Made by a program: the position numbers and the translations under genes. The notes below the pieces were generated by a model. That model had not been told where the DNA came from. It saw only the letters and a program-made list of their open reading frames with translations, and ran no database searches. Shown here piece by piece: positions 4,413 to 38,216 of a stretch of DNA of 64,000 nucleotides (its first letter is position 1; each line of letters starts with the position of its first letter). This DNA is from Octopus vulgaris (Eukaryota): positions 42,222,001 through 42,286,000 of the forward strand of contig OX597823.1 of the NCBI GenBank assembly GCA_951406725.2. The letters run 5' to 3'.

Positions 4413-4703
4413 AGTTTTGAATGGTACAACAATGCACTATAGTACAAACTATGGGCTACATACCTGTTGTAATTTAGTCATCCTTAGTCTGATATGATAT
4501 TTTGGAATAAAATTCCTTCTTCAGATATTCTTAGATGAAGTCACTGCTATAATCAGTTTTCCAACGGTTAGTAGCGACTCCATCTAAGAATATCTGAAGA
4601 AGGAATTTTATTCCGAAATATTATCAGACTATAGATGATGAAATTACAACAGGTATATAGCCCATTGTTTGTATTATAGTGCATTGTTGTACCATTCAAA
4701 ACT
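4413..4703. mobile_element. Foldback element with a minimal hammerhead-like core in each arm
   Basis: Inverted arms of about 135 bp (agttttgaatggtacaac...gttgtaccattcaaaact). The + arm at 4594 reads CTGAAGA A GGAAT-TTT-ATTCC GAAATATT; the - arm has the same motif with AAAAT. Confidence 0.75.
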
Positions 4704-6755
4704 TTTTATTCTTTATAAATATAATTTCCCTAGTTGTTAATTTCACTTTCAGAGTATAAAACATGTACAATGTGTGTGTGTGTGTGTGTGGGTTTGTATA
4801 TGTGTTTCATCATCATTTAACATCTGTCTTTCATGTTGGAATAGGTTGGATGGGTCATTCCAGCCACCCACAACTTATCTTATTTCTAGATATGTAATGT
4901 AAAAGGTGCCAAACTGGATACAAACTAACAATCACCTGGGGAAAAACCCATTTATATCTACATATTCAGGAATAAGATATCTGATGGTAATGGAGATCAA
5001 AATATAGTGTACATATTAATATTGTAAATATACTTTCTAAACAAAGTAGATAATCTAAGAAGATATGATAATCTTTATAACAACAATTTAACTCAGACAT
5101 TCAGATATCTTAGGATTTGTAGACTTACTTCAATCTTTTTGCAATTCTTTATATTACCTTTGTGCACTTGTAAAGCAATTGTTTTGGTTTTCAATATTTT
5201 TTATCTTCCGTACATTTCTGTGATGATTCAGTGTGTATATTTAGTGTATATTTAGTGTTTGTACATTAAATGCATGTCTTGAAAGCTTGTTTACCAAATT
5301 TGACACAGACTTATGTTCAGTGTCAATGAAATTTTTCATCCAGCGTTCATCATCAAAGTGAGTTGTATGTTAGTATAATGTATAGAAGTAAAGTGGTGAA
5401 CTGGCAATATCGTTAGCATGCTGGAGAAAATGCTTAGTGGTATTTCATTCATTTTTATGTTCTGAGTTTAATTCCACCAAGGTTTACTTTGCCTTTCATT
5501 CTCTTGGCGTCAATAAAATAAGTGCCAACTGGGCAAATGGGTTGATGTAATCAACTTATCCCCTCCCCTGAACTTGCTGGCCTTGTGCCACAATTTGAAA
5601 CCAAGAGATTGGGGATCTGAAGTTAGAGTATAAAGCATAAAAACTTCCAGTAGTCAGTATTGACCCCTGAGGGTTTTATGTGGCTCTGTGAAGATTTAAT
5701 AAATACTTGAAATTATTTTGAAACACATTCTCTATTAAATATTCAAAGATATATCAATATGATATGACTGAAACTTTATGGTTCCCTTCCAATTTCATTA
5801 TGTGGCTCAAAATGTTTATTTTTAAAAAGTAATTATGAAATGAAAGAAGGTTTTTAAGTCAAGAAATGTTTTATTAATTACACTTCTAAATTTTATTTTA
5901 GAACTTCACATGTTTGGGTGGCAATAAGTTATTAATGATTTCATGAAGAGACAGACCAATGATATAAGAAATTTGCCAAACCCTGGTATAAAGTATAAGT
6001 TGTAGATGAATTACTATAAAGGGAAATATTCTTCTCTTGTAAAACATGTAAATATTGTCAGGTTTTCAGTGATAAAAGGTCTCAATAAAGAATGTTGGTA
6101 TTTATTTTATATATTTATGTTTGCATTTCTTTAACTGTTTAGTTCTATGTGTGTGGTTAATAAAGGTTACCTTCATTAGTCATGCTGACTTATAAGCCTG
6201 GTTTCCATGACATATAAATTCCCCACCTGGATGGATAGGATGCCAGTCCATTGTAGGTTTTACTCATTTTTGCCAGCCAAGTGGACTGGAGCAACAGGAA
6301 ATGAAGCGTTTTCGCCCAAGAACAGAACGTCCAGTCCAGGAATCAAAGCCTCAATCTTACAGTCATGAGTCCGACACCCTAACCACTGAGCCATGTGCCT
6401 CCTGTGAGGGTAATAGTCCTGGCTCTTTTGTAAGACCTCTCAAAACAAGTGAGATTGATGCATTTGTGGTTGACTGTTTGCACTCCACTCCATCCCTACC
6501 TCACCACCACCACCACCACCACCACCACACCAAAGGAAATGGAGGGAATTTCAGAAGAAAATTCTATCTGATGGAAGGAGGATAGGATTTATAGAAGTGT
6601 TAAATGCACAGAATAGAAATTATACAAGGTGAAACTGGATTTTTTAACAATTTGTATTATACCATTTGCTGTGGACTGGTAGACATTTTGAAATTTACTA
6701 TATTGGTTCTTTCATTCCTTGTATTACATTTTAACATGCCATTCTCTAAAAAAAG

Positions 6756-6786
<31 letters not shown>

Positions 6787-7504
6787 AAACAAGGTTGTAA
6801 TATTCAGTTGTTTTTTACTCATGCATTGAAGTTTTCATAGCCATTACATTGGTACAAGTTCTCTTCTTGGGTTAGATTCCATGAACAAAGTCCAGGTCAC
6901 TATTTCTATTTTTGGAATTAAATTTTTAAATTGTTGGAAGATTTATTTTGTTCGTATTCCTTCTTCTTGTCATATAATATTTATTGTCTGACACGGATGT
7001 TTAAATTCGACTAGACTTACAGGCTTTATATATGTATATATTATTATACATTAGTGTGGTCAGTCAAACTTCTCTGTTTTCTTTCACACCAGCCGGAGAC
7101 TTTCGGCCTCAAATCCTCAGCCATCATAAATCTTTTATTAGGAATTATGTTTTATGACTCACATAAAAATATTTTTTTCCATGTTATTTAATATTCAACT
7201 TTTTATTCTTTGATTACTCATACATACGCACACACATACAGACACTCATACAAGTGCATGTATGCATGTGCACACACAGACACACACACACATCTAATAT
7301 CTTTGAATTGTGACCTCAGTCAAAACTAGCCTCTACCACATCATATAACCATTTACAATACAAATTATTTTTTTACATTATATATCATCATCTATATATA
7401 ACGGCCATCTTCTATGCTGGCATGGGTTTCACAGTTAGGAAGATCTGACAAACCAGAGGACATTAAATGATGATAATGATAACAATGATATATATTGAGA
7501 GAGA

Positions 7505-7542
<38 letters not shown>

Positions 7543-8266
7543 AATATATCACTGAGAAAGCAAACTTAAGCTGAAACACTAGTGTATGATAATCTGCTGA
7601 TGTTATTTGCTGCGTGTTTCTACATACATTGTCTCTAGTCAATTTGTTCTCCAAGATATGTTTGTGTGCATGCATGCATGTATAATTATATGTGTGTGTG
7701 AGTAGCATGTAGAACACTTCCCTAAAGTGTTTGTTCTCAGCTCTATGATTGATATATAAAGTTTTATAAGTTTTAGCAGTTCTGTTTCAATCAACTAATC
7801 TGCAATACCCATGTTTTTTATTTTCTTGTTTTGTTTTTCCTCCCCATCTTAAACATTAAGTTACTAAATAATATTTTCTCCACAACAAAATCCTTTGCCT
7901 GAATAATGTCAATAGTGACTCTTTATATTGTTAAATGTATATAATATATATGTATATTGTATTGTCTATCATTTTTTTCTCTTAATATCTTCCTTGCAGA
8001 TGTCTTGTGATCATACGTATCTTAAAACCTACTCTGAGATTTGGCAATAAAAATCTTTTTCTTTCCCTACCAGAGCTAAATGGTTACTATTTACTAGTCT
8101 TTATGTTAAATCAATGTACTATTTTCTCTTTTTTTTTGCTGTATATTTGTTTAGTTTTTACTTCATTTTTCTGTTTCTATTTACAGTTCTTTCATCTAAA
8201 TATTTAAAGTGTGTTTCATTGTAAGCAACAGATACACTCCCTTGCTTTTTTTTTCCATTATTTCAG

Positions 8267-8351
8267 AAACTAACTGTGGTTTACCAGGTCCTTTGAGGAA
8301 TGGCTATTTAGATGGACATCGTACAACTGTAGGAGCTGTATTTTTCTTCAG
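8267..8351 (+). CDS. Internal exon (85 nt, phase 1 to 2) of a multi-Sushi/CCP-domain protein; first half of a CCP module
   Basis: Polypyrimidine tract plus tttcAG acceptor and AG|gtaatt donor. Translates xTNCGLPGPLRNGYLDGHRTTVGAVFFFR, matching the CCP pattern C-x-x-P...NG...G....F.C, and splices in frame to 16362. Confidence 0.9.
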
Positions 8352-8444
8352 GTAATTATTCAAAATACAAGAGAAAGAGAGAGAGTGAAGGTGACAGAGA
8401 GAGAAGGAAGACAGACAAATACTGATATGTGTGTGTGTTTTAAT

Positions 8445-8690
8445 ATTTCACTCAGGCATTGCAAGACTAATAACTTGATGTAGAACTCAATACATGTATG
8501 CTTCAGAACAAAGCATAAATCAAGTACAGAGCAGCAATAAGGAAATGAGATGACAAGGGGATAACCGATTATCTTATGAGCTTCATTAGCTTACAGTTGT
8601 TTCTGCTGTAAGATGCAGTGAACTTGTAGTTGAGTACCTGAGTGACACTTTATAACTTCATCAGAGCCTCTAATTCTATTTTCATTTGCA
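8445..8690 (-). mobile_element. Hammerhead-bearing short retroelement; a truncated paralogue lies at about 14536-14663
   Basis: 8447-8574 aligns with 14536-14663 (caggcattgcaaga...tagaactcaat...tatgcttcaga) and the element contains the 8589-8667 ribozyme. Confidence 0.6.
8589..8667 (-). ncRNA. Type I hammerhead ribozyme with a long, imperfect stem II
   Basis: Minus strand reads GCT CTGATGA AGTTATAAAGTG...GCATCTTACAGCA GAAACAACTGTA^AGC. Confidence 0.65.
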
Positions 8691-8986
8691 TATTACTGGG
8701 CTGAAACCATGCTGGGATAATGCCTTGAAGGATTTTATCCCCCCAAAAAATCAACCCCAGTATTTGTGGCTTCTTTTTTTTTTTTTTGTAAGTCTGCTAC
8801 TTATTGTCACTCACATTTACCATATCATTAAGTTATGGGGACATAAACAAACCAACACCAGTTGTCAAGTGATGGGAGGGTGACAAACAAGACACAAAGA
8901 CACACACATAAACATATATAAATATGTATGTATATATGTATATATATATATATACACACACACACATATATACATACATACACATG

Positions 8987-9034
<48 letters not shown>

Positions 9035-10288
9035 GACACACTGAATGGGCTTCCAAATAGTTTCCATCTAACAAATTCACTTACGTGACACTGATCAGTC
9101 TGAGGTTTTAGTAGAAAACAGATGTACAGTGGGACTGAAACCAAACCATCTGGCTGCAAAGCAAGCTTCTTATCCACACAGCCAGGCCTGAGCCTATGTC
9201 TGTCTGTCACACACACACACATGTAAGGTGATTGGTGTTAGGAAGTCATTAAAACCCTGCTAATACAGACATTGCAGTCTTCTGCCTAGCCAGCTCCTGT
9301 CAAACTGCCCCAGCCCATGCTAGCATGGAAAACAGACGTTAGATTACAGTGATGATGACAATAAAGATACACACACACTGACAGACAGAGATAAATAAAG
9401 AGACAAAGTTTGAGACAGAGGCATAATATAAATGAACTACATAGAAATAAAGTGACTGCAATTCAGGTAAAAGAAAAGAAAGAAAATTTTCATCATGCCT
9501 TTAGATTCACTTTCTCTCCTTTGGTCAAATAATTCTTTTGCTTGTATTTTACTTCAAATGAATTCATGCTGTCTGTCCTTATATAATATGCAAGGACAGT
9601 GGCAACATTAATGAAGATTTCAATGTTTTATTACTTACATAGAATGCAACACAATTTTCATTTACAATATCGTGTTTGGAGTCTTTTGTTTGTTGTTATT
9701 GACAGTTTGATTCACAAATTCATTTGAACATTAAAATCCACTCTCAGAATATTCTATCTGATTCTTCTATTTTATTTGCAGTCTCATTTTATTATTGTAG
9801 TCAAAGATTTGTATGTCCCGGCTCTAATGCCAAATAATAATGCATTGGCATTATTTTTGATATCCTTAAACTCCTGTCAAAGACAGCTTTAATCTCTTTG
9901 CCCTTTTGGGAGCCAGCCATATACTGTAAGGTTAGGGTGAACAATAGAATAATATTTAAAATGATGCCAGAGATGGTTGGCTGAAAAATATTCTGTTAGT
10001 GAGAAACACCAGGCCACACTTAGCACAGGAAAATGGACATTAAAATGATCATAAAATGATATCATTTATCTTGTATGAATTTCAGTCATTGGACTACAGC
10101 CATGCTGGGGCACCAACTTGAAAAATTTTAGTTCAACAAATCAACCCCAGTACTTATTTGATATTTAAATTGAGTATTAAATCTATTGGTCTTTTTTGCT
10201 GAACCTCTAAGTCACAAGTATATAAGCCAACACCAGTTGTCAAGCACTGGAGTGACAATTGGAATCACACAGACATATACTTATTTGT

Positions 10289-10319
<31 letters not shown>

Positions 10320-10489
10320 TGTAGTGGGCTTCTTTCATCTTCCATCTACCTAATCTATTCACAAGGCTTTGGTTGATCAGGGCTATTAATAGAAGATACT
10401 TGCCCAAAGGACCATGCAGTGGGACTGAGTCCAAAACCATGTGGTTGGGAAGAAAACTTCTTACCCCACAGCCAATAATAACAATGCTT

Positions 10490-11026
10490 CTAGTACGTGG
10501 CCAGTACTTCATTTTATATACTTCAATTGTATTTTAAGTGCTTGATTGGTACAGTATTTTAATGACTTCAAAAGGATGGAAGGCCAACTTGAACGTGGCA
10601 GAATTTGAACTCCACCATCTTACTAATAATAATTGTTTCTAATGTAGGTACAAAGTCAGAGAATTTAAGGTGAGGGGGTTAGTTGATATTGACTGCAGTA
10701 TTTTATTGGTACTTTATTTTGATCAACCCTGATAGGATATATGACAAAATTGATCTCGGCAGGATTTGAACTCAGAATGTGATAATAATCCTTACTAAAT
10801 TTCGGCATAATGCTAACAAATTTAGGGAAAGGGATAAGTCAATTACATGGACCCTAGCACTCAAATGGTACTTATTTTATTGACACTGAGAAGATGACAG
10901 GCAAATCTGACCTCAGAATTTCAACTCAAGACAGAAACGAGACAGAAGTAATGTTACTAAGCATTATATGTGACATACTAATGGTTCTGCCAGCCTGCCA
11001 CCTTCGATGATGATGATGATGATGAT

Positions 11027-11084
<58 letters not shown>

Positions 11085-12071
11085 GATAACCTTCCTACTA
11101 AAGGTACAAGACCTGAAATTTGGGGGTAGGAGAATAGTTGATTACATCGAATCACTGATACTTGATTTATTGATACCAAAAGTATGAAAGGCAAAGTTGA
11201 CCTCAGCGAAATTTGAACTTAGAACATGAAGACAGACGAAATACTGCTAAGCATTTTGCCCAGTGTGCTAACAATTCTGCCAGCTTGCCACCTTAATAAT
11301 GACGATGATGATGATGATGATAATGTCCTAATTCAGTACCAGGCAGTGACTTTCATGGCTTCTTATCTTGATTGACTGGAAGTGTTAACATGTACATGTT
11401 TTGTGTTGCTTTAAAAAGATGAGCTATGACCAATTGACCATGTCCTTTAGTGGCTGACAATATGTGCATCTCTGATCACAAACAGGAGTTGTGTGTGAGA
11501 GCATCATAGCCATGTGTTGAGAGGAATTCTTTGAGGTTTGGATACTTCACTCCTGGAAACATGGATGTTTCTTTCAACAACCTTAAACAACCGTTATTCA
11601 GGGACTTTTTGAATGGGACAGGCTACTCAACCTGAAGAAAATTCTAATTGGGTCCCACTTGCAAGATCTTGCACTATTTATCTTGATATGAGATCACCAT
11701 GTTACACACATATTGTTGTGATGCATGTGCCTCGTGTACTCTTATCAGACAGGTAGTCTTCATGGGTATATTGGGCTTCATATATTTGTACCCCAGTGTC
11801 ATTTTGATGGTACACACTGTTCTTTCATTCAATAGTAATAATAATAATGATGATGATGATGATGGGTTCAATTTTTGCACAGTACTTTTGGTGGGAAGGA
11901 GACAGTCAATTATGTTGACCCCAGTACCTAACTGATACTATTTTTTCAACCCCGAAAGGATGAAAGACAAAGTCGACCTTGGCAAAATTTGAACTAAGAA
12001 AGTAAACAGCTTGAAGAAATGCCACTAAGCATTTTGTCCAACATGCTAATGGTACTGGTAGCTCACCACCT
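10490..12071 (-). mobile_element. Cluster of head-to-tail family B SINEs separated by (TAA)/(TGA)n, with a LINE-like insert at about 11325-11830
   Basis: Repeated gaatttgaactcagaa B-box motif at about 10600, 10765, 10918, 11210 and 11986. Confidence 0.7.
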
Positions 12072-12082
12072 TCATTGATATA

Positions 12083-12114
<32 letters not shown>

Positions 12115-12608
12115 CAGTGAACATACTGATGGATAACAAAGTTTTATTGATCAAGTCTAGGCATAATAGCTATCCTCTATATTCCTTTACAAGATAGTCT
12201 GTGAATATTAAATCTATTACTAAGTTTAGTCTAGACAAAAACATCAGAAACAAAATTAAACAGAAGGCTGCTAATTTATTAGTTCTATAACAATGCTCCT
12301 ACATACTGTGTTATTCAACATTTATAACATTACAATGTTCTCGGCTTTCTTTTTCATATCATTAGCTTTCATGTTTGGCAAAAGTGATTCCGTTGTTTGT
12401 GTTGTTATTCTAAATTCTTCTACTCATGAATATTACAGAAAATATTTTGACTGAATATTAATATAGACAGGAGATGTTAATTAGACAAACCTGAGTTTAG
12501 AATGTTAACATGTTATTCATGAACTCTAGGCCTTCACTAAATATATAATCAATGTATATATATATATACAGATAGATAGATAGATTGATAGATAGATATA
12601 CATATATG

Positions 12609-12642
<34 letters not shown>

Positions 12643-13161
12643 CACACATATATATATATAAAGACATGTACATACACAAATATATGCTCACATGCATATA
12701 CATACATATATATATACACACACACCCATGCACACACACACACACACACACATATCAGGCACATGCCATGAGTAATTACTCAAGGTAGGCAGTTGGTAAT
12801 GTTTACGTAGTAAAATGCAAAAAAATAAGCAAAACACAGGTGTGCAACTGAGTTTGAGGCAGATTTACTTCTGCCTTTATAGTATGTTAAGAAAAAAGTG
12901 GTTGTAGGAGTGTATACAGCATGTGTACTACAGCAGTACTATGTGTAGCTTTAATACTAAAATTGAAAGGCAGGGGCAAATTATGCCTACCTAATCTACA
13001 AAAAAAAAATATATATTTTGCATTTTATTCATAATAATCGGAGTAACCTACATAATTTTATTGAACTAGGTGCATATTTTGCCATAAAAGCAAAATGTTA
13101 CAATCGACCTATTTCATTCAGGGTAGGCACTGCCTACCTTGCCTACCCAGGCAGCACGTCA

Positions 13162-13193
<32 letters not shown>

Positions 13194-13203
<10 letters not shown>

Positions 13204-13472
13204 GAAATGAGGTATTTAGAAATCTGGATGGTTTTATATTTACAGATATTTATTAGTATGTTACATGTTTTTATAAATCATATATCATACAATAGCGCTT
13301 CTGTCCTCTCTAGTGGAGTTTTCAAATTCTGAAAGCACTAATATATGATATATGATTTATAAAAACATGTAACATATTAATAAATATCTGTAAATATAAA
13401 ACCATCCAGATATCTGAGTACATCATTTCTTCTAATATATAATACCTGTACATCATCTCCAAACCTTTTAAT
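13194..13472. mobile_element. Foldback element in (TA)n with ~105-bp arms and an unpaired tail
   Basis: tattagaagaaatga...tcatttcttctaata inverted arms with a ~30-nt tail; only an AAAACATGTA stem III-like remnant is visible. Confidence 0.7.
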
Positions 13473-13540
13473 ATATATATATATATATATACTGGTACAC
13501 CGGCGATTATAATTAATTTTATTGTATCGCATTTATCTTT

Positions 13541-13579
<39 letters not shown>

Positions 13580-13582
<3 letters not shown>

Positions 13583-14025
13583 TCATCATTGTTTAACGTC
13601 CGCTTTCCATGCTAGCATGGGTTGGACGAATGACTGAGGGCTGGCAAACTAGATGGCTTCACCAAGCTTCAATCTTGATCTGGCAGAGTTTCTATAGATG
13701 GATGCCCTTCCTAATGCCAACCACTCTGAGAGTGTAGTGGGTACTTTTATGTGCCACCAGCACGGGGCCAGTCAGGCAGTACTGGCAACGACCTCACTCG
13801 AATCTTTTACACATGCCACCGGCACAGGTGCCAGTAAGGCGATGCTGGTAACAATCACGCTCGAATGGTGTCTTTTACGTGCCACCGGCACAGAGGTCAC
13901 ATAGCCACTCTGGCAACGATCACGCTCGGATGGTGCTCTTAATACCCTACTAGCACAGGGCTCTAGTGCCAGGAGGGCGACGCTGGTAACGATCACACTC
14001 GGTTGGTGCCTTTTAAGTGCCACTA
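13580..14025. repeat. (CAT)n-tailed dispersed repeat containing a 62-66 bp GC-rich minisatellite (about 4 units)
   Basis: catcatcattgtttaacgtccgctttccatgctagcatggg end shared with 15370, 18960 and 42857; tgccacc(a/g)gcac recurs at 13752, 13814 and 13880. Confidence 0.7.
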
Positions 14026-14777
14026 TACATACACACACATACATGCACATATATATGTACATATACACACGCACATACATATATATACGGTGCAGACATG
14101 GCTGTTTGTTTAGTAGTTTGCTTCCCAACCACACAGTTACAGGGTTCAGTACCACTGCATGGTAGCTTGGGCAAAAGTATTTTATGAATGTTCCAGGCCA
14201 ACTAAAGCTTTGTAAGTGGTTTGATTTGGTTGACAAAAACTATTAGAAGTTCATCGTGTACATGAGTGTGTGTGTGTATGTTTGTTTTATTTTACTGATA
14301 TATGTTAGTCGTAAATGAGTGTCTTGTCGCACAAGCAGTGTTATTCACTTCCAATAATCTGAAAAAAACATGTCTCGCCATAGATATGTTCTCTTGCTTG
14401 GAAAGAGGTGAGGGTTGATGACAGAATGGTGCTGTAGAATAATAGCCTCAACAAATTTTGTCTGACCCATAAAAGCATAGAAAAGAGACATTAAAGCAAT
14501 GATATATGTATGTGTCTACTTATTTGTTTTAATCTGTCACTTAGGCATTGCAAGATTAATGACTGACTGTAGAACTCAATATACATATGCTTCAGAGTGA
14601 AGCGTTAGTTGAGTGCAGTGCAATAATAATGAAATAAGATGTCAAGGGAATAAACAATTATCTGAAGTCCATAAGATAATCATTTATTCTTTGGTCATCT
14701 TATCTTATGTATGTACGTATGTTTATCTGAGTACATATATTTGTGTGTGTGTGTGTGTGTGTGTATGTATAAGTATG

Positions 14778-14817
<40 letters not shown>

Positions 14818-14838
14818 CATTTTAAATACACAACCAAA

Positions 14839-14928
14839 AGAGCTACTGATAGTTTCATACTTTTATGATACTTGAACAGGCATATTTACAAAGTATGCCA
14901 TGTATCTTGAAGCAATCTTTCAGGCTCT
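14839..14928 (-). ncRNA. Type I hammerhead variant with core CUGA-AA-GA
   Basis: Minus strand reads AGAGC CTGAAAGA TTGCTT...AAGTAT GAAACTATCAGTA^GCTCT: 5-bp stem I, ACT/AGT stem III, GUA site. A decayed mirror copy lies at about 15540-15625. Confidence 0.65.
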
Positions 14929-15118
14929 GTTTATGTGCTATATATATATATATAGAATGGTTGTATACTGTCAATCTAACGCGAACGTGACAGTAGGGGG
15001 TTACACCACCACTGTTTAGCCCTAGGAAGCATCGATGCTTCCTGCTGGCTTCGACACATTTTTCCTGTGTCCTTATATACATTTACGAAGGGGAGACAAA
15101 CACCCCCAGCAGCCAGGC

Positions 15119-15177
15119 CTGCATCTAGAGACACGCATGTTTCAGGATCCTTGTCCATCATCAGTCTAGAGTAGCAG
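15119..15177 (-). ncRNA. Type I hammerhead ribozyme at the apex of a foldback element
   Basis: Minus strand reads CTGCTACTCTAGA CTGATGA TGGACAAGGATCCT GAAACATGCGTGTC^TCTAGATGCAG: intact core, GGA/TCC stem II, GUC site. Confidence 0.82.
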
Positions 15178-16082
15178 ACGCCCGCCAGCTGTTGATATCT
15201 GTCCCAATTCGCAAATGTATAGGGTTAAACAGCGTTGGTGTAACCCCCTACTGTCATGTTCACGTTAGATTGACAGTATACAACCATTCTATCGCCCCAC
15301 CACTGTACATATCTCTATGAGAGATTTAGAAATTTAATATTTCTGATATATATATATATATATATATATCATCATCATCCTCATCACCGTTTAACGTCCG
15401 CTTTCCTTGCTAGCATGTGTTGGACGATTTTGACTGAGGGCTGGCGAACCAGATGGCTGCACCAGGCTCCAGTCTTGATTTGGCAGAGTTTCTACAGCTG
15501 GATATATATATATATTAAAAACAAGGATGTTGGGCAGCACCTGTAAGATTACTTTAAGATACATGGTGTATTTTATGAATAAGCCTGTACAAGTATCATA
15601 AAAGCATGTAACTATTAGAAGCTCTTTCGATTGTGTATTTATATTGATATTTATCTCTCACTGGATGGAGTAAATGTTTTGCTGATTTTATCTCTATTGG
15701 ATCTTTAAACTATATATATATTTATATATATGTATGTATATACAGACAGACAGACACACACACACAAATATATATATATATATATATGTACCCAACCATG
15801 TTGTCTTGAATTCAGTCCCTCTGTATGGTAATTTGGGCAACCTAGTCAAAGCACCACATGGTTGTTTTTGCTTTAATATCCATTTCTCAATCCTACTTGA
15901 ATGGGTCGAATGGAATTCAATGACACAGATTTTTTTCCCATGGCTAGATGCCCTTTCTTGTGGCCTACCCTGACTTTTCTCCTGGCAAGGTAATATTCAC
16001 CTATGGCCTGATATCATGGAAGTTTGAAAATAAATGACAATCTATTCTTACAATATACATGCACAATACACATAACACACAC

Positions 16083-16173
<91 letters not shown>

Positions 16174-16361
16174 GAAGATACTTGCAAGAGTTATCATGCA
16201 GTGTAACAGAACCTGAGACCACGTTCTTAAGCACACAGCCATTCCTGCTGTAAAACCATAGCAAAAATAAATTAAAAGAAATATCTATTTTCATATACTT
16301 TTGTAATTGTCACATTCTTTATTTTGTTTTATTTATATTTGTTTTTTCTTAAACATTTCAG

Positions 16362-16453
16362 ATGCAATGTGAGGACAACTTTCGACGGCCCATCTTTCTC
16401 CACTCAGTGTCAGGAGAATGGATCGTGGTCACATCCCCCTCCAAAATGCTGGG
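16362..16453 (+). CDS. Internal exon (92 nt, phase 2 to 1); second half of the CCP module
   Basis: catttcAG acceptor and G|gtaagt donor. Translates (R)CNVRTTFDGPSFSTQCQENGSWSHPPPKCW(G), with the C...G.WS...P.C Sushi signature. Confidence 0.92.
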
Positions 16454-16882
16454 GTAAGTTTGTTTTTTTCCCTTCTTTTACAATTTTATGCATGGAAATA
16501 TCAAGTTTTAAATACATCCCATTCAGTGTGTATATAAAAATAATATTCAACAAGAAATGTACTTAGAAATGAAATGAATAAGATACAATAACATCATAAG
16601 ACAGTATGTACTCAACACAAATAGTGTTGATTACCCTTCTCTTTGAAGAGTAGTGGTACGATTGGAGATTTTAGGAGGTAGAAGGGTGTACTATCTTCTG
16701 TACAATAGATCATCATCAAAAGCAACAACAGCATGAAGATATAATCCACAGCTATTTCACATTTACAGCACATTGCTTCACTTTAAGAACAGATTATTTT
16801 GAATTCTTTGTAATTTTTATTTTACATTCCTCATTAAGTCTTATCAGCAAAGACTTTCAACACTTCTATAGCATTTCAGCTA

Positions 16883-17995
16883 TTCAAGGTCTGATCAATA
16901 AGTATCCAGAGTGGTGCTATAAAAACAAAACTACAACACGTACCAATTTGGCATGTAATCTCCTTCAAAGCAGTCACCTTCGGAAGCCACACACTTAACC
17001 CAGCACTGTTTTCATTGATGGAAGCATTCCTGGAACTTGTTTTCTGGGATAACCAGCAGCTGCCACATCACATTCTCTTTGACTTCCTCGACGTCCTGAA
17101 ATCTTCTTCCTTTCAAGCGGGATTTGATTTTTGGAAAGAGGAAAAAGTCACAAAGGGCGAGATCTAGGGAATACGGTGGCTGTCAGACATGGGGAATGCT
17201 GTGCCTAGCCAAAACTGCTGCACAAGCTGCGCTGAATGGGTAGGTGCATTGTCATGGTGCAATTGCCACTCACTGGACACATGCAATTGTGGCCTTTTCC
17301 AACAAATAGCATCCCACAAATGCTGCAGAACATCACGATAGTACTCCTTGTTTACTGTTTGACCAAGTGGAGCATACTCATGATGAACAGTCCCCTCATT
17401 TGTGCTTTCTTCAGTCTCAGAGAGGTTGGGATCTTCCACTGTGAAGACTGAGCCTTTGTTTCAGGATCACAAGCATCAACCCACGATTCATCACCCATTA
17501 TAACAATTTTCAAAAAATTTTCATCATTCTCAACACGGTCAAAGAGATCTTGTGCAACTGAAACCTGAGTGTCCTTTTGGTCAGCTGAAACAGTTTTGGC
17601 ACAAACTTGGCTGACACACATCTCATACCTAAATCTTTCATGATCATGGACTGAAATGAACCTTAACTTATCTGCACATCCTCTGATAACTCACAGATGG
17701 TGATTTGATGACTTCCCCTCACAGCTGCATGCATATCTGTGATGTTTTCTCAGTTCTACTGGTTGCAGGTCTCTCAGAACGTTTGTCACTATCGACATTT
17801 TTTCAGCCATCTTGGAAATGTCTGAACCAGTCGTACACTTGTGTGCAGTTCATACACTTTCTGCAACTTTGCATAGGCCATTGAGCAGGTATCACCAAGC
17901 TTTTGGCAAAATTTGATGCAGATTCTCTGCCCAACTTTCTCTGTCATGGTCAATGTGACGATCATATGCTACACATGTTCCTTCCAAGGACTGCT
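16883..17995 (-). mobile_element. Decayed mariner (DD34D) DNA transposon
   Basis: Frameshifted transposase at about 17947 to 16950: MTEKVGQRICIKFC...VIMGDESWV...WQLHHDNAPTH...PPYSLDLALCDFFLFPKIK...EGDCFEGD. A TIR-like end (ttcaaggtctgatcaataagtatcc) lies at about 16883. Confidence 0.9.
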
Positions 17996-20083
17996 GAAAA
18001 CTTCTATGACTTCTTCAAAACCCTACATTATCTGCTACTGACACCAACATCTCAAATTTAATATGGATTCTCTGCTGGTGAAAACCTGTAGAGTCATGGA
18101 TGCAGTCTGGCCTGATTGTTTTACCCAATGCCATTGATAACTGAGAGTTTTTCTTCACCTATGACCCAGACATAATATCCAATGTATTCATAATGTTGAA
18201 CTTTATCCAGAAGTTGACAATAATGTTTATCCTCCCTAATTGCTATAATGAGTTGGTTAAGCCTTTATCAAATAATATGCCATGAAATTAGATATAACAT
18301 CTTGATTGTGATTGACTTAAAAACTGTGCCAAAACAGACAGTCTTTTGCCTGGCCAGCTCCTGTCAAACCATCCAACCCATGCCAGCATGGAAGGTGGAT
18401 GTAAAATGATGATAATGATGATGATCCATTTTCTGGAGCAAAAAATTTTTGTTCTTAAGAATATATTTCATTCTCATTCTATCAAAAAGATCAGTTAAGT
18501 TTGCTGATTTGTATTGTCTGAAAGGGATAATGCTTTATTGGAAATATTATGTTGGCCAATAATTTTCTGAAGTAGAGCCGCAAAATAGACTGTAAACCCA
18601 TTTTGGAAAAGCGTGATAGTCATCCTAGCCCTCTTATTTGAGCATCAATCCACAGGTAAATTAAACTTAGTATAACTTTTCAAAGTCCTTGGATTTTGAG
18701 GAAGCTGCTCACACACACATGCACACGCATACACAGGAACTTCCATTTTATATCAGCTGCAGCGTTTGTATCAACAAGAAGCATCAGATGGTTTTAAAAT
18801 CTTTAAAAGCTGGTGCTCATTTTTATCGTTACTAAAAAGAACTAATAGACAAGCACTTTCAGAAAAGTTCAATACTGTACATGCACTCGTGTATAGTCAC
18901 CTTCAGTAATAATTTTCTTCAGTTCATCATCATCATCATCATCTACTATCATCGACATCATCATTGTAACATCTACTTTTCCATGCTTGCATGGGTTGGA
19001 CAAAATTTACTCAGATGGATTTTTACAGCTAGATACTCTTTCTGTCACCAACACTCACCCGTTTCCAAGTGAGGTAATATTTCCCTTATGACCAGACATA
19101 TTTCTACAGAAGACTGAAAATGAAAAGCACTGCTTTTATGATAGTGACACTTGTTTACAACTATCATGCAATGTGAAAACAAAAAGACAGTAACACATGC
19201 ACATACACTCACACACATATATTACACAATGGGCTGCTTTCAGTTTCCTTTAACCAAATCCACTCACAAGGCTTTGGTCAACCTAGGGTTATAGTAGAAG
19301 ACACTAAGCCAAGGTACTATGCAGTGGGATTGAACTTGAAACTATGTAGTTGGGAAGCAAACTTATTACAACATAGCAATGTCTGTCTACAATAATTTGT
19401 TGTGGCCTCTGTATCATTATTAGCAATTTTACCCATGATTTTAAAGTTGTGTGTGGCTGTGTGTTAAGAAGCTTGTTCCTGACCACATGGTTCTGGGTTC
19501 AGTCACACAGCATGGCACTTTGGGCAATTATCTTCTACTATAGCCTCAGGCCAACCAGAGCCTTGTGAGTGGATTCTGTAGATGCAAACTGAGAGAAGCC
19601 CATCATATATATGTGTGTATGTGTGTCTTTGTGTCTGTATTTGTCCCTCACCACCACCATGCTCTCTTGGCAACCAATGCTGGTGTGTTTATGTCCCATA
19701 AATTAGCAGTTCAGTGAAATGAAACTGATGGAATAAGTACTAGGCTTACAAAGAATAAGTCCTGGGATCAATTTGTTCAACTAAAGGCAGTGCTCCAGCA
19801 TGTCTGCAGTCAAATGACTGAAACAACTAAAAGAATAAGAAATGTCTTTGCAGCAGATGTTGTATCTTCAAATTCCTTCAAATTATAATGCAAAATGTTA
19901 GCTTCCACTTCAGTGACTGTTATGTTTATTAGTATATATTATATGTACACACATCAAGTGCTTATCTGAAGTGATGCTTAAATGCATCACTTCATATTTG
20001 TAAAATAATAAAATAATGTTCAGGTTTTTAATGGCGTAACTGCTTTAGCACTTCCTCTAAACTTTGAAAATCATCAAGTTTAA

Positions 20084-20208
20084 CCCTTTAGCATATAAAC
20101 TGGCCATATCTGACTCTACAATGTCATAAAATATTACATCATTGAAATCTCAGATCTACAAGTTAATACATGATTAATTCAAAATTGAGTAATCTGAATG
20201 CTAATGGG
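20084..20208. mobile_element. piggyBac-type MITE
   Basis: TTAA|CCCTTTAGCAT...ATGCTAATGGG|TTAA. Confidence 0.75.
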
Positions 20209-21027
20209 TTAATGTCTACTTTAATCTTTTTATAGCTTCTTTATATAATACTACCTTCACTTCCAAATTTTAGTCTCTTTCCAGTCATCTTGGACAAGTG
20301 TAGATAGTAAAATTTGAGAAAATTATTGATGTTCTTTCTTGGCAAATAGTAGTAAACTTATTTAATTTAGTTATTTAGAGATAGAAATATAAGAAAATTC
20401 TGAAAAACAAAGTGGAGGGATGAAGTAGTGGGGGAAGTATTTTTTGGTTCGAGTTAGTACCAAGTCACAGGTCAGTTGAATTGGTGCACTTATAAACAAG
20501 CTGACTTGAGTGCCAAGAAGACAGCAAGTAGAAACTGACAAATACGATGAGGTCTATGAGAAAAGCAAGGCCAATTGAAGTGGTACATTCACAAATAAAG
20601 TCGAGAGCAGAGGAAGGAATATATTTTCAAACAGCTTGCATATCGTGATATTATTTTACCTGTAATTTATGTATTTCTGTAAGACTGGAATTATAGGCTG
20701 AAGCTTGAAATAAATGGCATACTTTGCAAATTATTCACACACACACACACTCAAAACTTCTTTCAGGTTCCATCTACCAAATCCACTTATAAGCCTTTGT
20801 TCAGTTCAGGGCTATAGTGGAAGACACTTGCCCAGGGTACCACACTGTGGGACTGAACTTGAAAGCACATGGTTAAGATATACATAATCTTATAAAGCAA
20901 ACAGCTATATGTATATATAAATATATATCTATATATATCCATATCCATCCGTCCATCCATCTATCTATCCATCCATCCCTCTATATATATGTATGTGTGT
21001 AATATATATATATATATATATATATAT

Positions 21028-21429
21028 TAAGTAGTTGAATGAATTATCCTAGTATGGATAATTCGGTTAACCGATACCCGGGTAGCAAATTTACGTCAGA
21101 AAGCACGGTTGAAGCTACATGCCAAGGGCAGAAATCACGTGCTTTCGTGTGGAAATTTGTGTGTCTTTTTACTTTAGATAAATGAAAGAATGGAGTCAAT
21201 CGACGATTTAACAAAATTCCTTTATTCTCGACACGTGTTTCGAAGACTGCATATTCTTAATTCCGAAGGAATAAAGGGTGCATTATGCCGTTAGACAGCA
21301 TTAAGCATTAAGACGGCATAATGCACCCTTTATTCCTTCGGAATTAAGAATATGCAGTCTTCGAAACACGTGTCGAGAATAAAGGAATTTTGTTAAATCG
21401 TCGTTCGACTCCTTTCTTTCATTTATCTA
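21028..21429 (-). mobile_element. Young foldback element (arms 21175-21429) with a half hammerhead and a structured tail
   Basis: Near-perfect arms of about 115 bp, each containing GAAACACGTGTC. The tail 21028-21175 contains the palindromes tcggttaaccga and tacccgggta. Flanked by (TA)n. Confidence 0.78.
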
Positions 21430-21450
21430 TATATATATATATATATATAT

Positions 21451-22284
21451 TAATTAATTAATAAGGGTGAGAGAATTAGATACTAATTTAATAGTATGTC
21501 TATTCAACACCAAGTGGCCTAGTGCTCCGAGAAACCTGGATAATTATAATATTTTATAATATATTATAATATTTTTACAAAATAAATATAAGAGAGTGGT
21601 CACTATATGGCTCACTCTAGCACCAGTTAATCCAAAAGGTTTCAACCACAAAAATACATGTTTCCCATGAAAGTCAGTACGATTGTTAGCTCACACGGAC
21701 AGGGCAAATAAAAAATAACAAAAATACAGATTATTTTGGGACAATTGTTTCGCTATTAATGAATTAAATGTAATTTTACTTACAAAAAAATCCACTTGTA
21801 GCTCGTCAGCCAAAACTATCTGGATGAAATCCACTCAATCACACACCAGATTTTACCATAACGATAAATACACGTGTGGTTCAATTGATTACATCCGACG
21901 TTATAATTCAAATGCCCCAACTAACAGCGCGCCAAACTTTCACGGAAAACAAATACTGCATTTAGAAATAAATGCAGCATAATTATAATTAATTAATAAG
22001 GGTGAGAGAATTAGATACTAATTTAATAGTATGTCTATTCAACACCAAGTGGCCTAGTGCTCCGAGAAACCTGGATAATTATAATATTTTATAATATATT
22101 ATAATATTTTTACAAAATAAATATAAGAGAGTGGTCACTATATGGCTCACTCTAGCACCAGTTAATCCAAAAGGTTTCAACCACAAAAATACATGTTTCC
22201 CATGAAAGTCAGTACAATTGTTAGCTCACACGGACAGGGCAAATAAAAAATAACAAAAATACAGATTATTTTGGGACAATTGTT
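21451..22284 (-). mobile_element. Non-coding retrozyme-like or Penelope-pLTR-like element; 535-bp period, about 1.56 units, inserted in (TA)n
   Basis: 21451-21749 is repeated at 21986-22284 with one mismatch seen. It contains the hammerhead, is flanked by TA tracts, and has no substantial ORF. Confidence 0.82.
21734..21815 (-). ncRNA. Type I hammerhead ribozyme, fully canonical
   Basis: Minus strand reads TTTTGG CTGACGA GCTA-(43 nt)-TAGC GAAAC AATT GTC^CCAAAA: 6-bp stem I, 4-bp stem II, palindromic stem III, GUC cleavage after 21740. Confidence 0.88.
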
Positions 22285-22390
22285 ATATATGTATATATAT
22301 ATATATAACAAAATCAGTGACTGATTGTCACCTATTTTTCTATATATTGCAAGATGGAGTGAACTACTGCTATCTCTAGTGGATGGGTGT

Positions 22391-22439
22391 CCACCACTGA
22401 GTATGAGCACAAATAGCTCGAAACCATACAGTCTCATGG
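22391..22439 (+). ncRNA. Degenerate hammerhead inside a ~220-bp (TA)n insertion at 22307-22524
   Basis: CCACCA CTGAGTA T GAGC-ACAAATA-GCTC GAAAC CATACA GTC TCATGG; core G8 is mutated and stems I and III are decayed. Confidence 0.5.
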
Positions 22440-22842
22440 TCCTGTTGGCAACAAACATTATTTTTCAGTATAGTTACTACTTTCATTTCTTACAGAGATT
22501 TCCTAACTAGCTACTTTGCTTGTTATATATATATATATATATATAAAGATAAACGTCACCCTTTTCAAGCCTAGCCAGGCTCATAGATCCGGTTTCCCAG
22601 TTTCTGTGGTGTATGTGTTCCCCCTAGCTGGATGGCACGCCAGTCCATCGCAGCATTACTCAAGAAACAGGAAGAGAGAGTGAGAGAAAGTTGTGGCGAA
22701 AGAGTACAACAGGGGTCGCTAGAGCCTCATGGAGCTTTTAGGTGTTTTCGCTCAATAAACACACGCAACACCCAGTCTGGGAATCAAAACTGCAATCCTC
22801 CAACCGTGAGTCCGCTGCCCTAACCACTGGGCCATTGCACCT

Positions 22843-22892
<50 letters not shown>

Positions 22893-23600
22893 CATCATCA
22901 TCATTATCATCCTTTAACATCCTTCTTCCATTTTGTTTTTTCTTTCTTGCATGGACCTGAGTGTATCTAGCTCTAATGTCTGCTTTGGTAAGGTTCTGTG
23001 GCTGGATATCATTCCTAGAATGGCTTGGTCTACAGATGACTTGTTAATCCCTAATTCTCTCCCGAAGCTAGCTGCTGATGAAGTATTTCTTGAGTGTCAT
23101 CATAGTTGGTCATTTATTTACTCATTTAAAAGCCTAGAACATTAGCGTTATTATTGTCAAGGTAGGCATGTCAATTGTTTGTATAGCATCACATAAACTG
23201 TTTTGTGCCTCTGGGCAGAATTGGCTACAAACTTCATGTCTAATTAAGAAATCACTAATGATCTTACTAAGTGGGTTAGCTACCTGAATAAGAGAAGATA
23301 ATAAAATAGTGTCTCAGGTGTGAAGGGTTTAAGATCCTTGATCAGCGAATGTAATCTAGCATAGGACAACAATAGCATTTAACATTACTTGTCCAATAGT
23401 TTCAGCTTAACTAAGGAATTAGAAACCCATTTATCAATTATCCTACCCTACTTTCTCTTTCTTTCTCCTTCTAAATGTGTGAATGTGTGTGGGGGAGAGA
23501 AAGACAGACAGACATACAGAGAGAAAGAAAGAGTAATAAATTGATAAATGACGAAGCAATTTCTGCATACACACACATATATGTATATGTTTTATATGTG

Positions 23601-23641
<41 letters not shown>

Positions 23642-23675
23642 CACATACATATACACACATATTTTTATATATGCG

Positions 23676-23715
<40 letters not shown>

Positions 23716-23789
23716 TACACATACATATATATACACATACACATATTTTTATATATGCGTAGGTATATATATACATACACATATTTTTA

Positions 23790-23821
<32 letters not shown>

Positions 23822-24338
23822 CATACACATGTGTAATATGTATGTGTGTATATATATATATTTGTATACAGTCCTACATACATTCATTCACACATACACA
23901 CTCTTATACATACATACATACATACACTCTAGCACATGCACACTCAACTCTATCCACCTAGCTAACTGATTATCCATCAATCTATTTATCTATTAGTTCA
24001 GCTATTTATCAGTTGATTACAAAATCAATCAGTAATCCCACAGAATTGATCTAACAATATGGTTGACATTCCTCAACTGATAAACTTTCAAGTTCTTGTT
24101 CCTCAAGGAATGGAATCAACCAATAATTCAGCCCTGCCATTACAGAAATTGCATGATTTAGTGGCAAGACAGGATAAAATTCTGTCAACTGTTTAACGGT
24201 TTGGGATTCTTAACTAGACAATTTGTTGTGGTCTATCCTTAGGCAAGATATTAATTTTACTTCTTTAGAATGTAATTCTTTAATTCAGTCTCCATTTATT
24301 ATCTTCTCTGTGTTTGTATGTATACATATATAAATATT

Positions 24339-24385
<47 letters not shown>

Positions 24386-24462
24386 GTATGTGACCTCGTG
24401 TGTACCGTTGGCGATTTTTTTTTTCCTCCATCTTCCCTTCTTTGGATCTTTCCTTTTCCTAT

Positions 24463-24497
24463 GTTTCTGACGAAGAGCTCTGCTCAAAACGTTAACC
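24463..24497 (+). ncRNA. Degenerate minimal hammerhead (GAAAC mutated to AAAAC) inside a ~210-bp insertion at 24390-24598
   Basis: GTTT CTGACGA A GAGC-TCT-GCTC AAAAC GTT AAC; flanked by (TATG)n and (TA)n. Confidence 0.6.
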
Positions 24498-24594
24498 CCT
24501 CCTTCTTTCCTTCTTTCCTGAGCGTCCAATAATACTATACATGTTCCACATCTTCGCGTTGTTGTGTTTTCTCTTTGTGTTTTCATGTTTGGAT

Positions 24595-24633
<39 letters not shown>

Positions 24634-24705
24634 TAATTCTCATACAAGAATGTTGTTGACAATGACTCTGACTTCGAAGTTACAGCCAGTTAAGCCATCA
24701 TTGAG

Positions 24706-24748
24706 CAGTCTGACGATGGCTAAGCTGGTCGAAACCTCGAAGTTACTG
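24706..24748 (+). ncRNA. Type I hammerhead ribozyme, sense to the host gene
   Basis: CAGT CTGACGA T GGCTA-AGC-TGGTC GAAAC CTCGAA GTT^ACTG. A partial inverted decayed copy lies at 24651-24700. Confidence 0.68.
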
Positions 24749-25434
24749 TCAACAACAAATTGTAAAAATTGTAAATAATAAAATGTGAAAATCAGACTTA
24801 GTTGGAATTTCAGTGATTAATATATTCTTCTATACACAATCATACAAACGTAAATATTTATCTATCTGTCTGTCTGTCTATCTATCTATCTATACATATA
24901 TATAGACAGAGAGATAGACATATAGATATATACATATATATTCTTTTATTCTTTCACTTGCTTTAGTCATATGACTGTCACCTTGAGGGGTTTTAGTCAA
25001 ACAAATCGACCCCAGGACTTATTTTCTAGGCCTAGTACTTATTCTATCAGTCTCTTTTACTAAACTGCTAATTTATGGGATCATAAACACACCAACACCA
25101 TTGGACAAACACAGACATAGATATATAGTAATGCATACATAGATACATATATATTTGTATACGATGGGCTTCTTTCAGTTTCTGTCTACCAAATCCACTC
25201 ATGAGGCTTTGGTCAGCTCAAGGCTATAAAAGACACTTGCCCAAGGTACCACACAATAGGACTGAACCCAAAATCATGTGGTTGAAAAGCAAGCTTCTCA
25301 CCACACAGCCACTCCTATATATATATATATATATATATATATAACAAAGAGTAAAATTAATTAATTAAGAAGTAATCAATAATTTCACCAAGTAGAATTT
25401 GGCATGAAAAAAAGGACCATGAGTTTACCATGAA

Positions 25435-37300: not shown

Positions 37301-38216
37301 ATCATTAAATGTTCACTTTTCCACGCTTGCATGAATTGGATGGAATTTATTGAGGCAGATTTTTGTGTTTGGATGCTCTCCCTGTCACCAAACCTCATCT
37401 GTGTCTAAGCAAGGTAATATTTCCCTATGGCTAGCCATACATATTCACAGAACACTGGAAATCAACATCTTCACATCTACAATGGTTATGTTCATTTCAG
37501 CTGCTGCATGATGCCAAGACAAGAATGGTCTTTCACACACACACACACATGAGAGGCTTCATCACAGTTTCTGCTTACCAAATCGACTAACAAGTATTTG
37601 GTTGGCTTGGGGCTATGAAAGAAGACACTTGTCTAACATGCCACACAGTGGGGTTGAACCCAAAATCACATGGTTGGGAAGCAAGCTACTTAACCACATG
37701 ACCATATTTTAAACTACAGTTGAATGTATTTATTCATTCAATAATTTATTTGTTATGAGAATCAGAACTCCAATTTTATCGAAACTTTCTCCTTAAAAAT
37801 CAAGTTATCTAATTCAATATTTAATTCAATTATTCAACAAGATAGTAGAAGCAAGAGAAATTAATTTCTGTTCAGCAAATACATAAAGTTGCTCTATTCA
37901 TAAGTGTATTTAAACTGTGCTTTTGTGTAAAAAAAAAAAAGATTTCATAGATGCAGGTGGGGGTGGCTGTGTGGTAAGAAGCTTTCTTCCTAACCATATT
38001 ATTCCAGGGTCAGTCCCACTGTGTGGCACCTCAGGCAAGTGTCTTCTACTATAGCTTCAGGCCAACCAAAAGCCTTTTGAGTGGATTTGGTAGGTGGAAA
38101 CTGAAAGAAGCCCATATATATATTTATGTATATAGAAATAAATGTAGGGATAAGCAAGTTTGACAGATCAATACATAAAGTTTTACTATGTTAATACATG
38201 AAATACAAAAGATGTA

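Follow-up and report, generated by a model that had tools for sequence, protein, structure and literature searches.

Palindromic, probably Penelope-like stubs in an Octopus vulgaris contig, and an apparent link between ribozyme and inversion axis that is best explained by selection

Endonuclease-positive Penelope-like elements (PLEs) insert as units in which a pLTR lies next to an inverted, 5'-truncated copy, with an optional tail (PMC3846280, PMC8557442). How PLEs make these inverted copies and tails has been described as an open question (PMC8557442), and self-priming at palindromes in the junction has been proposed (PMC3846280). The minimal type I hammerheads of metazoan PLEs have already been recorded as opposite-strand pairs ~100-700 bp apart (PMC4209133), and Naiads form inverted-plus-tail structures without canonical hammerheads (PMC8557442). 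In the in vitro study of green anole Poseidon (Frangieh et al. 2024, PMC11167929), both target strands are cleaved and extended, two reverse transcription start sites define the tail, and hammerhead mutants leave insertion unchanged. A rule tying inversion to the ribozyme would have assigned the PLE hammerhead a role in integration. Such a rule lay at the centre of the original prediction for the DNA analysed here, which held that the RNA end defined by the ribozyme, or its stems, dictates the template switch.

The window, that is, the whole stretch of 64,000 nucleotides that was analysed (contig OX597823.1), contains all five of the palindromic elements that had been predicted: A (4413-4703), B (14952-15292), C (21175-21429), D (~24625-24780) and E (14816/15648). 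Arm identity is 93% in B, 83% in E and 62-71% in D, while the arms of C are 90% identical in their outer and 100% in their inner part. The ribozyme-sense strands of A, B, C and D face outward, as in head-to-head copies. (TA)n tracts lie on both sides of B, C and E, and on one side of D. They would mask any target-site duplication; A, in which no microsatellite adjoins either arm, shows none of at least 6 nt. Two further inverted pairs (19229-19603 and 37555-38112) were rejected, as self-comparison identified them as two of many copies of a dispersed repeat in the window.

The elements share with described PLE insertion units head-to-head copies, a tail on one side, insertion into microsatellites or AT-rich DNA and short overlaps or palindromes at the junction (Arkhipova et al. 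2013 PMC3846280; Craig et al. 2021 PMC8557442), and have a hammerhead in the end module (A, B and D), a fixed 3' end with optional tail (B, the tail of E being likewise family sequence) and variable 5' truncation (B and E). The earlier statement that PLEs often integrate as an inverted truncated copy plus tail is borne out by the B family. In contrast with those units, the window elements lack a reading frame, whole insertions measure 150-400 nt, and tails are 54-150 nt rather than the 30-40 bp quoted for PLEs. No PLE parent reading frame was found among the eight window open reading frames scanned, which gave only RVT_1 and DDE_3 matches elsewhere in the window. The resemblance to Poseidon lies in two start sites of reverse transcription that define end and tail, in AT-rich targets and in extension of both strands. 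In that study the start sites are placed at least ~90 nt 3' of the cut, and its accessible sections do not deal with inversion junctions; the distances here are 35-230 nt. Animal non-LTR retrozymes (Li et al. 2026, bioRxiv 10.64898/2026.07.22.740005) are also non-coding and PLE-derived, with a type I hammerhead, but consist of units repeated in tandem, head-to-tail, every one with its own ribozyme, whereas the window elements are head-to-head, variably truncated stubs; in the window self-comparison none of the five elements is repeated in direct orientation.

A, C and D are described from the single copy in the window, whereas B, and E more thinly, could be compared with other copies. In A, the outer arms are 92% identical, and the central 49 nt form a stem that has diverged further (63%). 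C is a near-perfect fold-back in which 88 nt, dead core included, are identical between the arms; at its centre there is a short tandem duplication rather than a stem, and a probable tail of ~148 nt (21027-21174, minus strand) lies between the left arm and (TA)n. D is an old fold-back with core arms at 24651-24757 and a junction at ~24700/01; its left copy stops within the core strand, and a probable tail (~70 nt) extends to ~24850. The left arm of E (14816-14947, minus strand) consists of family sequence to at least 14947, and its right part (15540-15711, plus strand) comprises an arm at 15540-15648 and a ~63-nt tail reaching (TA)n, which a loose end at 14821 matches; the centre is broken by B and a LINE-like end. 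Two further inversion joints were seen for E, differing from each other. One-sided tails of about 50-150 nt had been claimed for every element. Family sequence upholds this for B (54 nt) and E, while the tails of C and D are plausible through their (TA)n boundaries only and that of A is unassignable. In each of B, C and E it is the shorter, inverted arm that bears the tail.

Hammerheads are solid in three of the five elements (A, B and D), the core is lost in C, and a hammerhead is unsupported in E. With a descriptor that allowed an unpaired base or mismatch where helix II starts, complete type I motifs are predicted in B (15124-15170, minus strand, C3 15164, GUC cut after 15130, palindromic helix III) and D (plus strand, C3 24710, cut after 24744), and perfect-core matches scoring at least 10 numbered two in the window against none in each of 100 shuffles. 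A carries one decayed type I hammerhead per arm (C3 at 4594, plus, and 4524, minus), each with its own lesion; both score 9.0, and a score of 6 was reached by 0/250 random window segments. C scores 2.0, as do or exceed 17% of random segments; it retains the GAAA/helix III half and 8-9 bp of stem I, its CUGAnGA strand being degenerate in the same way in both arms. E, at -0.7 or below, is at background. The motifs of A and D share with minimal PLE hammerheads (Cervera and De la Pena 2014, PMC4209133) an extra base after A9, and palindromic helix III and mostly single, dispersed motifs are further common features; in contrast, B sits in a ~55-bp native rod that extends stem I, most of its family has C4, and C is without a core strand. 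An Rfam scan of the window gave nothing at gathering thresholds, and the 150 E-value matches listed of 319 were to microRNA-type models driven by microsatellites. Hammerhead-like motifs at 7552 and 47339 lack an inverted copy. A partial motif at 22397 was considered as an old fold-back, for which alignment gave no support, and a motif at 41849 falls within the remnant of a DDE transposase and was treated as chance.

The claim that the axis lies at the hammerhead in all five elements stands for A and D, but not for B and C, and E has no core from which to measure. As predicted, the axis of A is ~35 nt 5' of C3 in each arm, and D turns where stem I has its base, ~9 nt 5' of C3. In B the fold does place the core at the apex; the inversion junction, however, is at 15220/21, 57 nt 5' of C3, and the apex is native RNA structure. 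The axis of C was said to replace the CUGAnGA strand, but it lies at 21302; the core position (~21336 plus, 21268 minus) is ~34 nt further 3' and is taken up by a 9-bp mini-hairpin instead. For E, the proposed axis immediately 5' of stem I lacks a credible core to which it could relate.

The family of B was explored through public contigs placed on the element, in which contig depth is a crude measure. B comprises a long direct copy (14952-15221, minus strand), whose fixed, tailless 3' end at 14952 adjoins (TA)n (loose ends at 14939), a short inverted copy (15220-15292, plus strand) with a 2-nt (TA) overlap at the junction 15220-15221, and a 54-nt tail (15293-15346, plus strand) whose outer limit is another fixed end of the family (35, 36 and 5 contigs have loose ends at 15344), beyond which the AT-rich flanks are heterogeneous. 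The family is very abundant and has AT-rich flanks; its 3' ends fall at two fixed positions separated by 54 nt, one including the tail and one excluding it, and its copies dwindle toward the 5' side. Metagenome and viral contigs yielded 0 matches to a 20-nt motif from the arm of B. By hand arithmetic, tail depth is ~0.34 (X1), 0.50 (X5) and 0.51 (X3) of summed arm depth. Relative to bin 15070-87, depth is 0.09-0.12 at the core, 0.004-0.007 at 15196-213 and 0.001-0.002 across the B junction, although summed depth varies ~5-fold even within the 3' region that copies share, and the 5' drop could be imitated by divergence among subfamilies. This loss, more than 100-fold, takes place over a native RNA rod around the hammerhead (15075-15221, minus strand, arm match 72%), predicted to fold at -68.4 kcal/mol on the ribozyme strand against -45.0 on the opposite strand (z -7.2 versus -4.3).

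It could be argued from these data that reverse transcriptase is stalled, or self-priming of the cDNA permitted, by native stems located at the hammerhead or 5' of it, so that structure biases where long copies invert. The junction of B, 91 nt 5' of the cut, is exactly at the last base of the strand-biased rod; a second contig likewise departs from the reference at 15221; the long copy of D starts at the stem I base; and the fall in depth and the diverged central stem of A point the same way. The inverted copy of B, however, begins 50 nt from the base that the rod would prime, the tail on the short inverted arm of B, C and E could not be templated by a first cDNA begun tailless, the centre of C is not a stem, and complementarity at 10 skip-type B-family joints does not exceed random (p=0.26). 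We consider this explanation rather unlikely. Somewhat better placed, though short of probable, is the possibility that the template RNA starts shortly upstream of the hammerhead, from a short non-autonomous unit or promoter, and that full-length copies invert there. In three DNA runs the depth of the B family gives out around 15213-15221; the turning points of A, C and D precede the core position by 9-46 nt; and a (GA)n run stops ~12 nt ahead of the non-inverted 7552 motif. Against this, the fall in depth is gradual over ~110 nt and not stepwise, most B depth does not continue 5' of the core, and contigs cannot reveal RNA starts. An RNA start at this position is compatible with the explanation that we favour, for which it would supply the outer limit.

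The check proposed with the original prediction, mapping inversion breakpoints against the cleavage site, was run on the B family. Of 33 joints 15 were listed, comprising 12 of the B family and three in E that were left out of the B count; 14987-15059, 15015-14937, 15029-15260, 15005-14983, 15061-15010/12 and 14980-15061 were also left out, as internal deletions, go-backs or a likely duplicate, and head-to-head orientation was assumed for two 'opposite strands' joints. The longer-arm ends of the 12 listed joints lie at -156, -156, -126, -99, -97, -86, -47, -45, -24, +23, +26 and +48 nt from the cut, a spread of ~200 nt in which nine fall 3' of the cut and three reach it. Uniform spread is not rejected (KS p=0.58), and the zone favoured by the prediction holds 3/12 listed joints against 30% by chance; as detection is easier where the window copy best matches the family, upstream breakpoints are possibly under-counted. 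Joint overlap is 0-3 nt (mean 0.5).

These joints bear most directly on the view that the cleavage site sets the RNA end, and so the inversion point, which a real hammerhead near the junction in 3/5 window elements might seem to recommend. None of the 12 listed B joints is within 20 nt of the cut, and no cluster of loose ends at 15129/30 appears among the 24 rows listed of 917. A cleaved 3' product would be without the core, whereas A, B and D contain the core and 9-57 nt more. The arms of C are identical with the dead core included; cleavage thus cannot have set its axis. In 80-90% of B-family depth position 4 is C (U4C), reported to be less active in vitro (PMC3088659), and uncleaved RNA was found to be the substrate in the Poseidon study (PMC11167929). 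Cleavage as the determinant is very unlikely overall, and is already contradicted for the B family. Dispersed joints, 0-3 nt overlaps without excess complementarity, the dead core of C, the published hammerhead mutants and the Naiads together speak against the ribozyme-defined end or its stems dictating the switch.

Short, non-coding, with inverted ends and high copy number, the elements also resemble TIR MITEs (defined in PMC8969392), but one end overhangs the repeat, centre and length vary, and one arm is sometimes absent. An origin as MITEs or fold-back elements, in which the arms would be the long terminal inverted repeats of a DNA transposon, internal deletion would have varied the centres and hammerhead-like sequence would be present by chance, is highly improbable, although the arms are long, TA lies on both flanks and skip-type joints formally could be internal deletions. 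The end of B that overhangs the inverted repeat by 54 nt is itself a fixed family end; 4/12 listed joints have just tail sequence as their second 'arm' and carry no inverted repeat there; loss of the interior is one-sided, and the centre is not homogeneous (the B junction bin has 0.1-0.2% of the depth of bin 15070-87); no target duplication can be distinguished from (TA)n or minisatellite flanks; and a helix II pair of the B family shows reciprocal letter changes. The part of the original prediction that saw retro-products rather than MITEs is accordingly supported, in the B family, by the two fixed 3' ends, the one-sided tail, the one-directional loss of copies and the tail-only joints.

A sixth element, F (13199-13470), additional to those predicted, has 94% identical arms, (TA)n on both sides and a ~35-nt one-sided tail. 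It displays the same anatomy without a scorable hammerhead: none exceeds background, and a possible central GAAA-palindrome half, seen by eye, is weak either way.

We propose that the stubs A to F are probably 3' ends of several PLE families, joined head-to-head in AT-rich or (TA)n targets, with the ribozyme near the outer limit of copying and not at a preferred switch point. Reverse transcription would begin at one of two fixed sites near the element end, the intervening stretch becoming the tail; two fixed ends are observed for B, and two start sites have been shown in vitro for another PLE. The insertion would gain two outward-facing ends, often one tailed and one tailless, as seen in B, C, E and F, each target strand presumably priming its own cDNA. 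Each copy would halt after a variable 20-300 nt, and the two would be joined, perhaps by repair-type joining, with 0-3 nt of overlap or a few added letters; variable joints are found in B and E. As the hammerhead lies only 35-230 nt from the 3' ends and copies seldom continue for more than ~60 nt past it, any fold-back in which it is still visible must reverse shortly 5' of it, while those turning earlier show none and were not counted. The apparent link between ribozyme and axis is best explained by this selection effect. It fits less easily that A, C and D all reverse 9-35 nt from the core position and that the junction of B coincides with the base of its native rod.

A weaker form of the predicted rule survives, in that depth collapses across the hammerhead rod and the junctions of A and B are at the base of a native stem. 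It may be, although we think it unlikely, that a dimeric PLE complex primes both target strands at the two start sites, and that the rod around an attenuated (U4C) hammerhead is a structural stop that caps the cDNA and favours joining at the rod base. If so, the ribozyme region would be kept as a roadblock to reverse transcriptase or a protein-binding fold, not for cleavage, and the thousands of stubs per genome would be a ready record of how PLEs integrate.

This study bears on PLE biology in that B, the sole family tested, does not follow the ribozyme rule, and the finding reduces to the known pattern of PLE insertion. Such stubs resemble MITEs and are at risk of misannotation, while abundant families like that of B allow, given an assembly, direct comparison of breakpoints with structure.

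The window is AT-rich animal DNA, rich in microsatellites and decayed repeats, a makeup that resembles that of cephalopod genomes. All five palindromic elements of the original prediction, A (4413-4703), B (14952-15292), C (21175-21429), D (24651-24757) and E (14816/15648), were recovered by masked self-comparison and a sliding fold-back scan of the window, with arm identities of 92% in A, 93% in B, 62-71% in D and 83% in E; in C the inner 88 nt are 100% identical and the sequence outside them 90%. These elements are real, and of a kind already known. The same scans revealed three further fold-backs, F, G and H, absent from the earlier list. F (13199-13434, arms 94%; 13199-13470 with its tail) shares the anatomy of B, C and E, being bordered by (TA)n on either side and extended by ~35 nt on one. 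G (43055-43376) is older, with arms of 74-78%, and adjoins a LINE-like repeat, and H (62105-63035; 62105-63050 overall) has 384-nt arms of 89% identity, sits inside a minisatellite and carries a 16-20 nt extension on one side only. A 13-nt tandem duplication (4400-4425) lies at the left end of A, and E forms part of a nested insertion (14816-15711) in which its TA-rich centre holds B and a LINE-like 3' end (15389-15503, with another copy at 13591-13703). Directly after C comes a 298-nt direct repeat (21451-21748/21986-22283, 99.7% identity), either a recent local duplication or an assembly artefact. Elsewhere, broken non-LTR retrotransposon reading frames occupy 56907-58874 (RVT_1 match at 57875-58300, E 1.4e-12), and inverted ends of 82% identity at 41377-42319 enclose the remains of a DDE_3 transposase (E 2e-05, short of the curated cut-off); this unit is a decayed Tc1-like DNA transposon.

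A hammerhead ribozyme had been proposed in all five elements. An Rfam search of the window returned no hammerhead at the gathering score; a structural descriptor matched three sites, B, D and 7552, and two perfect-core matches scored at least 10, against none in each of 100 shuffles. On a graded score D ranks first at 11.6, followed by B (10.0), A (9.0 in each arm), C (2.0) and E (no more than -0.7); none of 250 random segments reached 6 and 17% reached 2. By this measure the hammerheads of A, B and D are solid, C holds a remnant only and that of E is unsupported; F, G and H scored no higher than background. The two arms of A bear different lesions, and thus the parent motif was probably intact. 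C retains the GAAA half, a palindromic helix III and stem I; its CUGAnGA strand is degenerate in the same way in both arms, its place being occupied in each by a mini-hairpin (21327-21347, 9 bp with one mismatch) that may derive from an older, small template inversion. Across the whole window the graded scan found six motifs scoring at least 8, against 0-1 in six shuffles: B, D, A (twice), 47339 and 41849, with no inverted copy detected for the last two. Complete or partial hammerhead-like motifs lacking a detectable inverted copy lie at 7552 (+), 47339 (-), 22397 (+) and 7120 (-), that at 7552 beginning ~12 nt beyond a (GA)n tract.

The original prediction held that the ribozyme-defined RNA end or its stems dictate a template switch, placing inversions at or just upstream of the ribozyme. 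The turn does lie ~35 nt 5' of the core position C3 in A, where the centre pairs worse than the arms (63% versus 92%), and ~9 nt 5' of C3 in D, as described. The axis of C does not replace the CUGAnGA strand, lying instead ~34 nt 5' of the core position. In B the fold indeed places the core at the apex, but the inversion junction is elsewhere. The arms of the inner rod (15075-15221) match at only 72%, and folding is much stronger on the ribozyme strand than on the other (-68.4 versus -45.0 kcal/mol; z -7.2 versus -4.3), as a native RNA structure would be expected to show. Two observations place the junction at 15220/21: the 93% arm starts at 15220, and a contig from another B copy tracks the reference to 15221 and then diverges. 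The two sides overlap there by 2 nt, and the distance to C3 is 57 nt and that to the cut 91 nt, the junction being on the 5' side of both.

Other copies were viewed through public contigs aligned to 14818-15346 only (3597, 2686 and 3472 from three DNA runs, and 204 from a guessed RNA run). One end of the B family is fixed at 15344, where the AT-rich flanks differ between contigs (35, 36 and 5 contigs in the DNA runs), and a second is fixed at the (TA)n next to 14939 (25 contigs in one DNA run, X3), which makes the B tail a stretch of family sequence lying between these ends. By hand arithmetic, tail depth is about one third to one half of summed arm depth. Contig depth, which is not copy number and swings about five-fold even within the 3' part of B, declines towards the 5' side: with bin 15070-87 taken as 1, it is 0.32-0.40 immediately 3' of the cut, 0.09-0.12 over the core, 0.004-0.007 in 15196-213 and 0.001-0.002 where B's own junction is crossed, and this last value argues that its exact palindrome is rare and no master copy. 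Loose ends at 14821 confirm the E tail as family sequence, and E has two inversion joints, differing in place. At hammerhead position 4 of B (15163) C replaces U in 80-90% of depth in the three DNA runs, and the canonical core of the window copy may reflect CpG decay of the C4 state; U4C lowers hammerhead activity in vitro, according to PMC3088659. In one helix II pair the two partners vary to a similar extent (24-36% for one and 19-48% for the other), the phase between them not being visible.

The analysis covered the best-supported 15 of 33 joints, 12 of them in B, a small sample that may under-count upstream joints. The longer arms end at -156, -156, -126, -99, -97, -86, -47, -45, -24, +23, +26 and +48 nt from the cut (plus being 5'), reaching it in 3 of the 12 and holding the whole core in one; a KS test does not reject uniformity (p=0.58). 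The zone from the cut to 40 nt 5' of the core contains 3 of these 12 joints, against 30% by chance, an outcome that a rule obeyed by 80% of copies would give with a probability of 6e-5. A ribozyme-dictated switch is therefore not supported where it is testable. The joints overlap by 0.5 nt on average, and the 10 skip-type joints showed no more complementarity than random pairs (p=0.26).

The contention that these apparent MITEs are not DNA transposons fared better: the two fixed B ends, and a shorter side consisting of tail only in 4 of the 12 B joints analysed, lead us to reject the MITE reading. Published work describes, for Penelope-like elements (PLEs), truncated copies in inverted orientation, tails and insertion into microsatellites, including in Naiads without canonical hammerheads (PMC8557442), inverted-junction palindromes with a self-priming model (PMC3846280), minimal hammerheads, some of them paired on opposite strands at a spacing of 100-700 bp (PMC4209133), and, for an anole PLE in vitro, two start sites, extension of both target strands and insertion unaltered by hammerhead mutants (PMC11167929). 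No title or abstract was found that maps inversion breakpoints against the hammerhead, most subscription papers falling outside the coverage. The elements are very probably of PLE origin. Few copies appear to extend more than ~60 nt beyond the hammerhead, a limit that may arise in one of three ways: reverse transcriptase may stop at the rod, the RNA may start just upstream of the hammerhead, or the cDNA may self-prime at a native stem, which fits A and partly B but not C or D. On the account that we consider likely as a whole, each element would be a PLE end module that is reverse-transcribed into an AT-rich target, with synthesis beginning at either of two fixed start sites; a pair of copies facing outwards, each varying in length independently of the other, would then be joined head to head. 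Joining of cDNAs from both target strands is favoured as the origin of the fold-back because in B, C and E it is the short arm that carries the tail. With the hammerhead 35-230 nt from the ends and so few copies passing far beyond it, selecting palindromes for a visible hammerhead would itself force the axis to lie just upstream.
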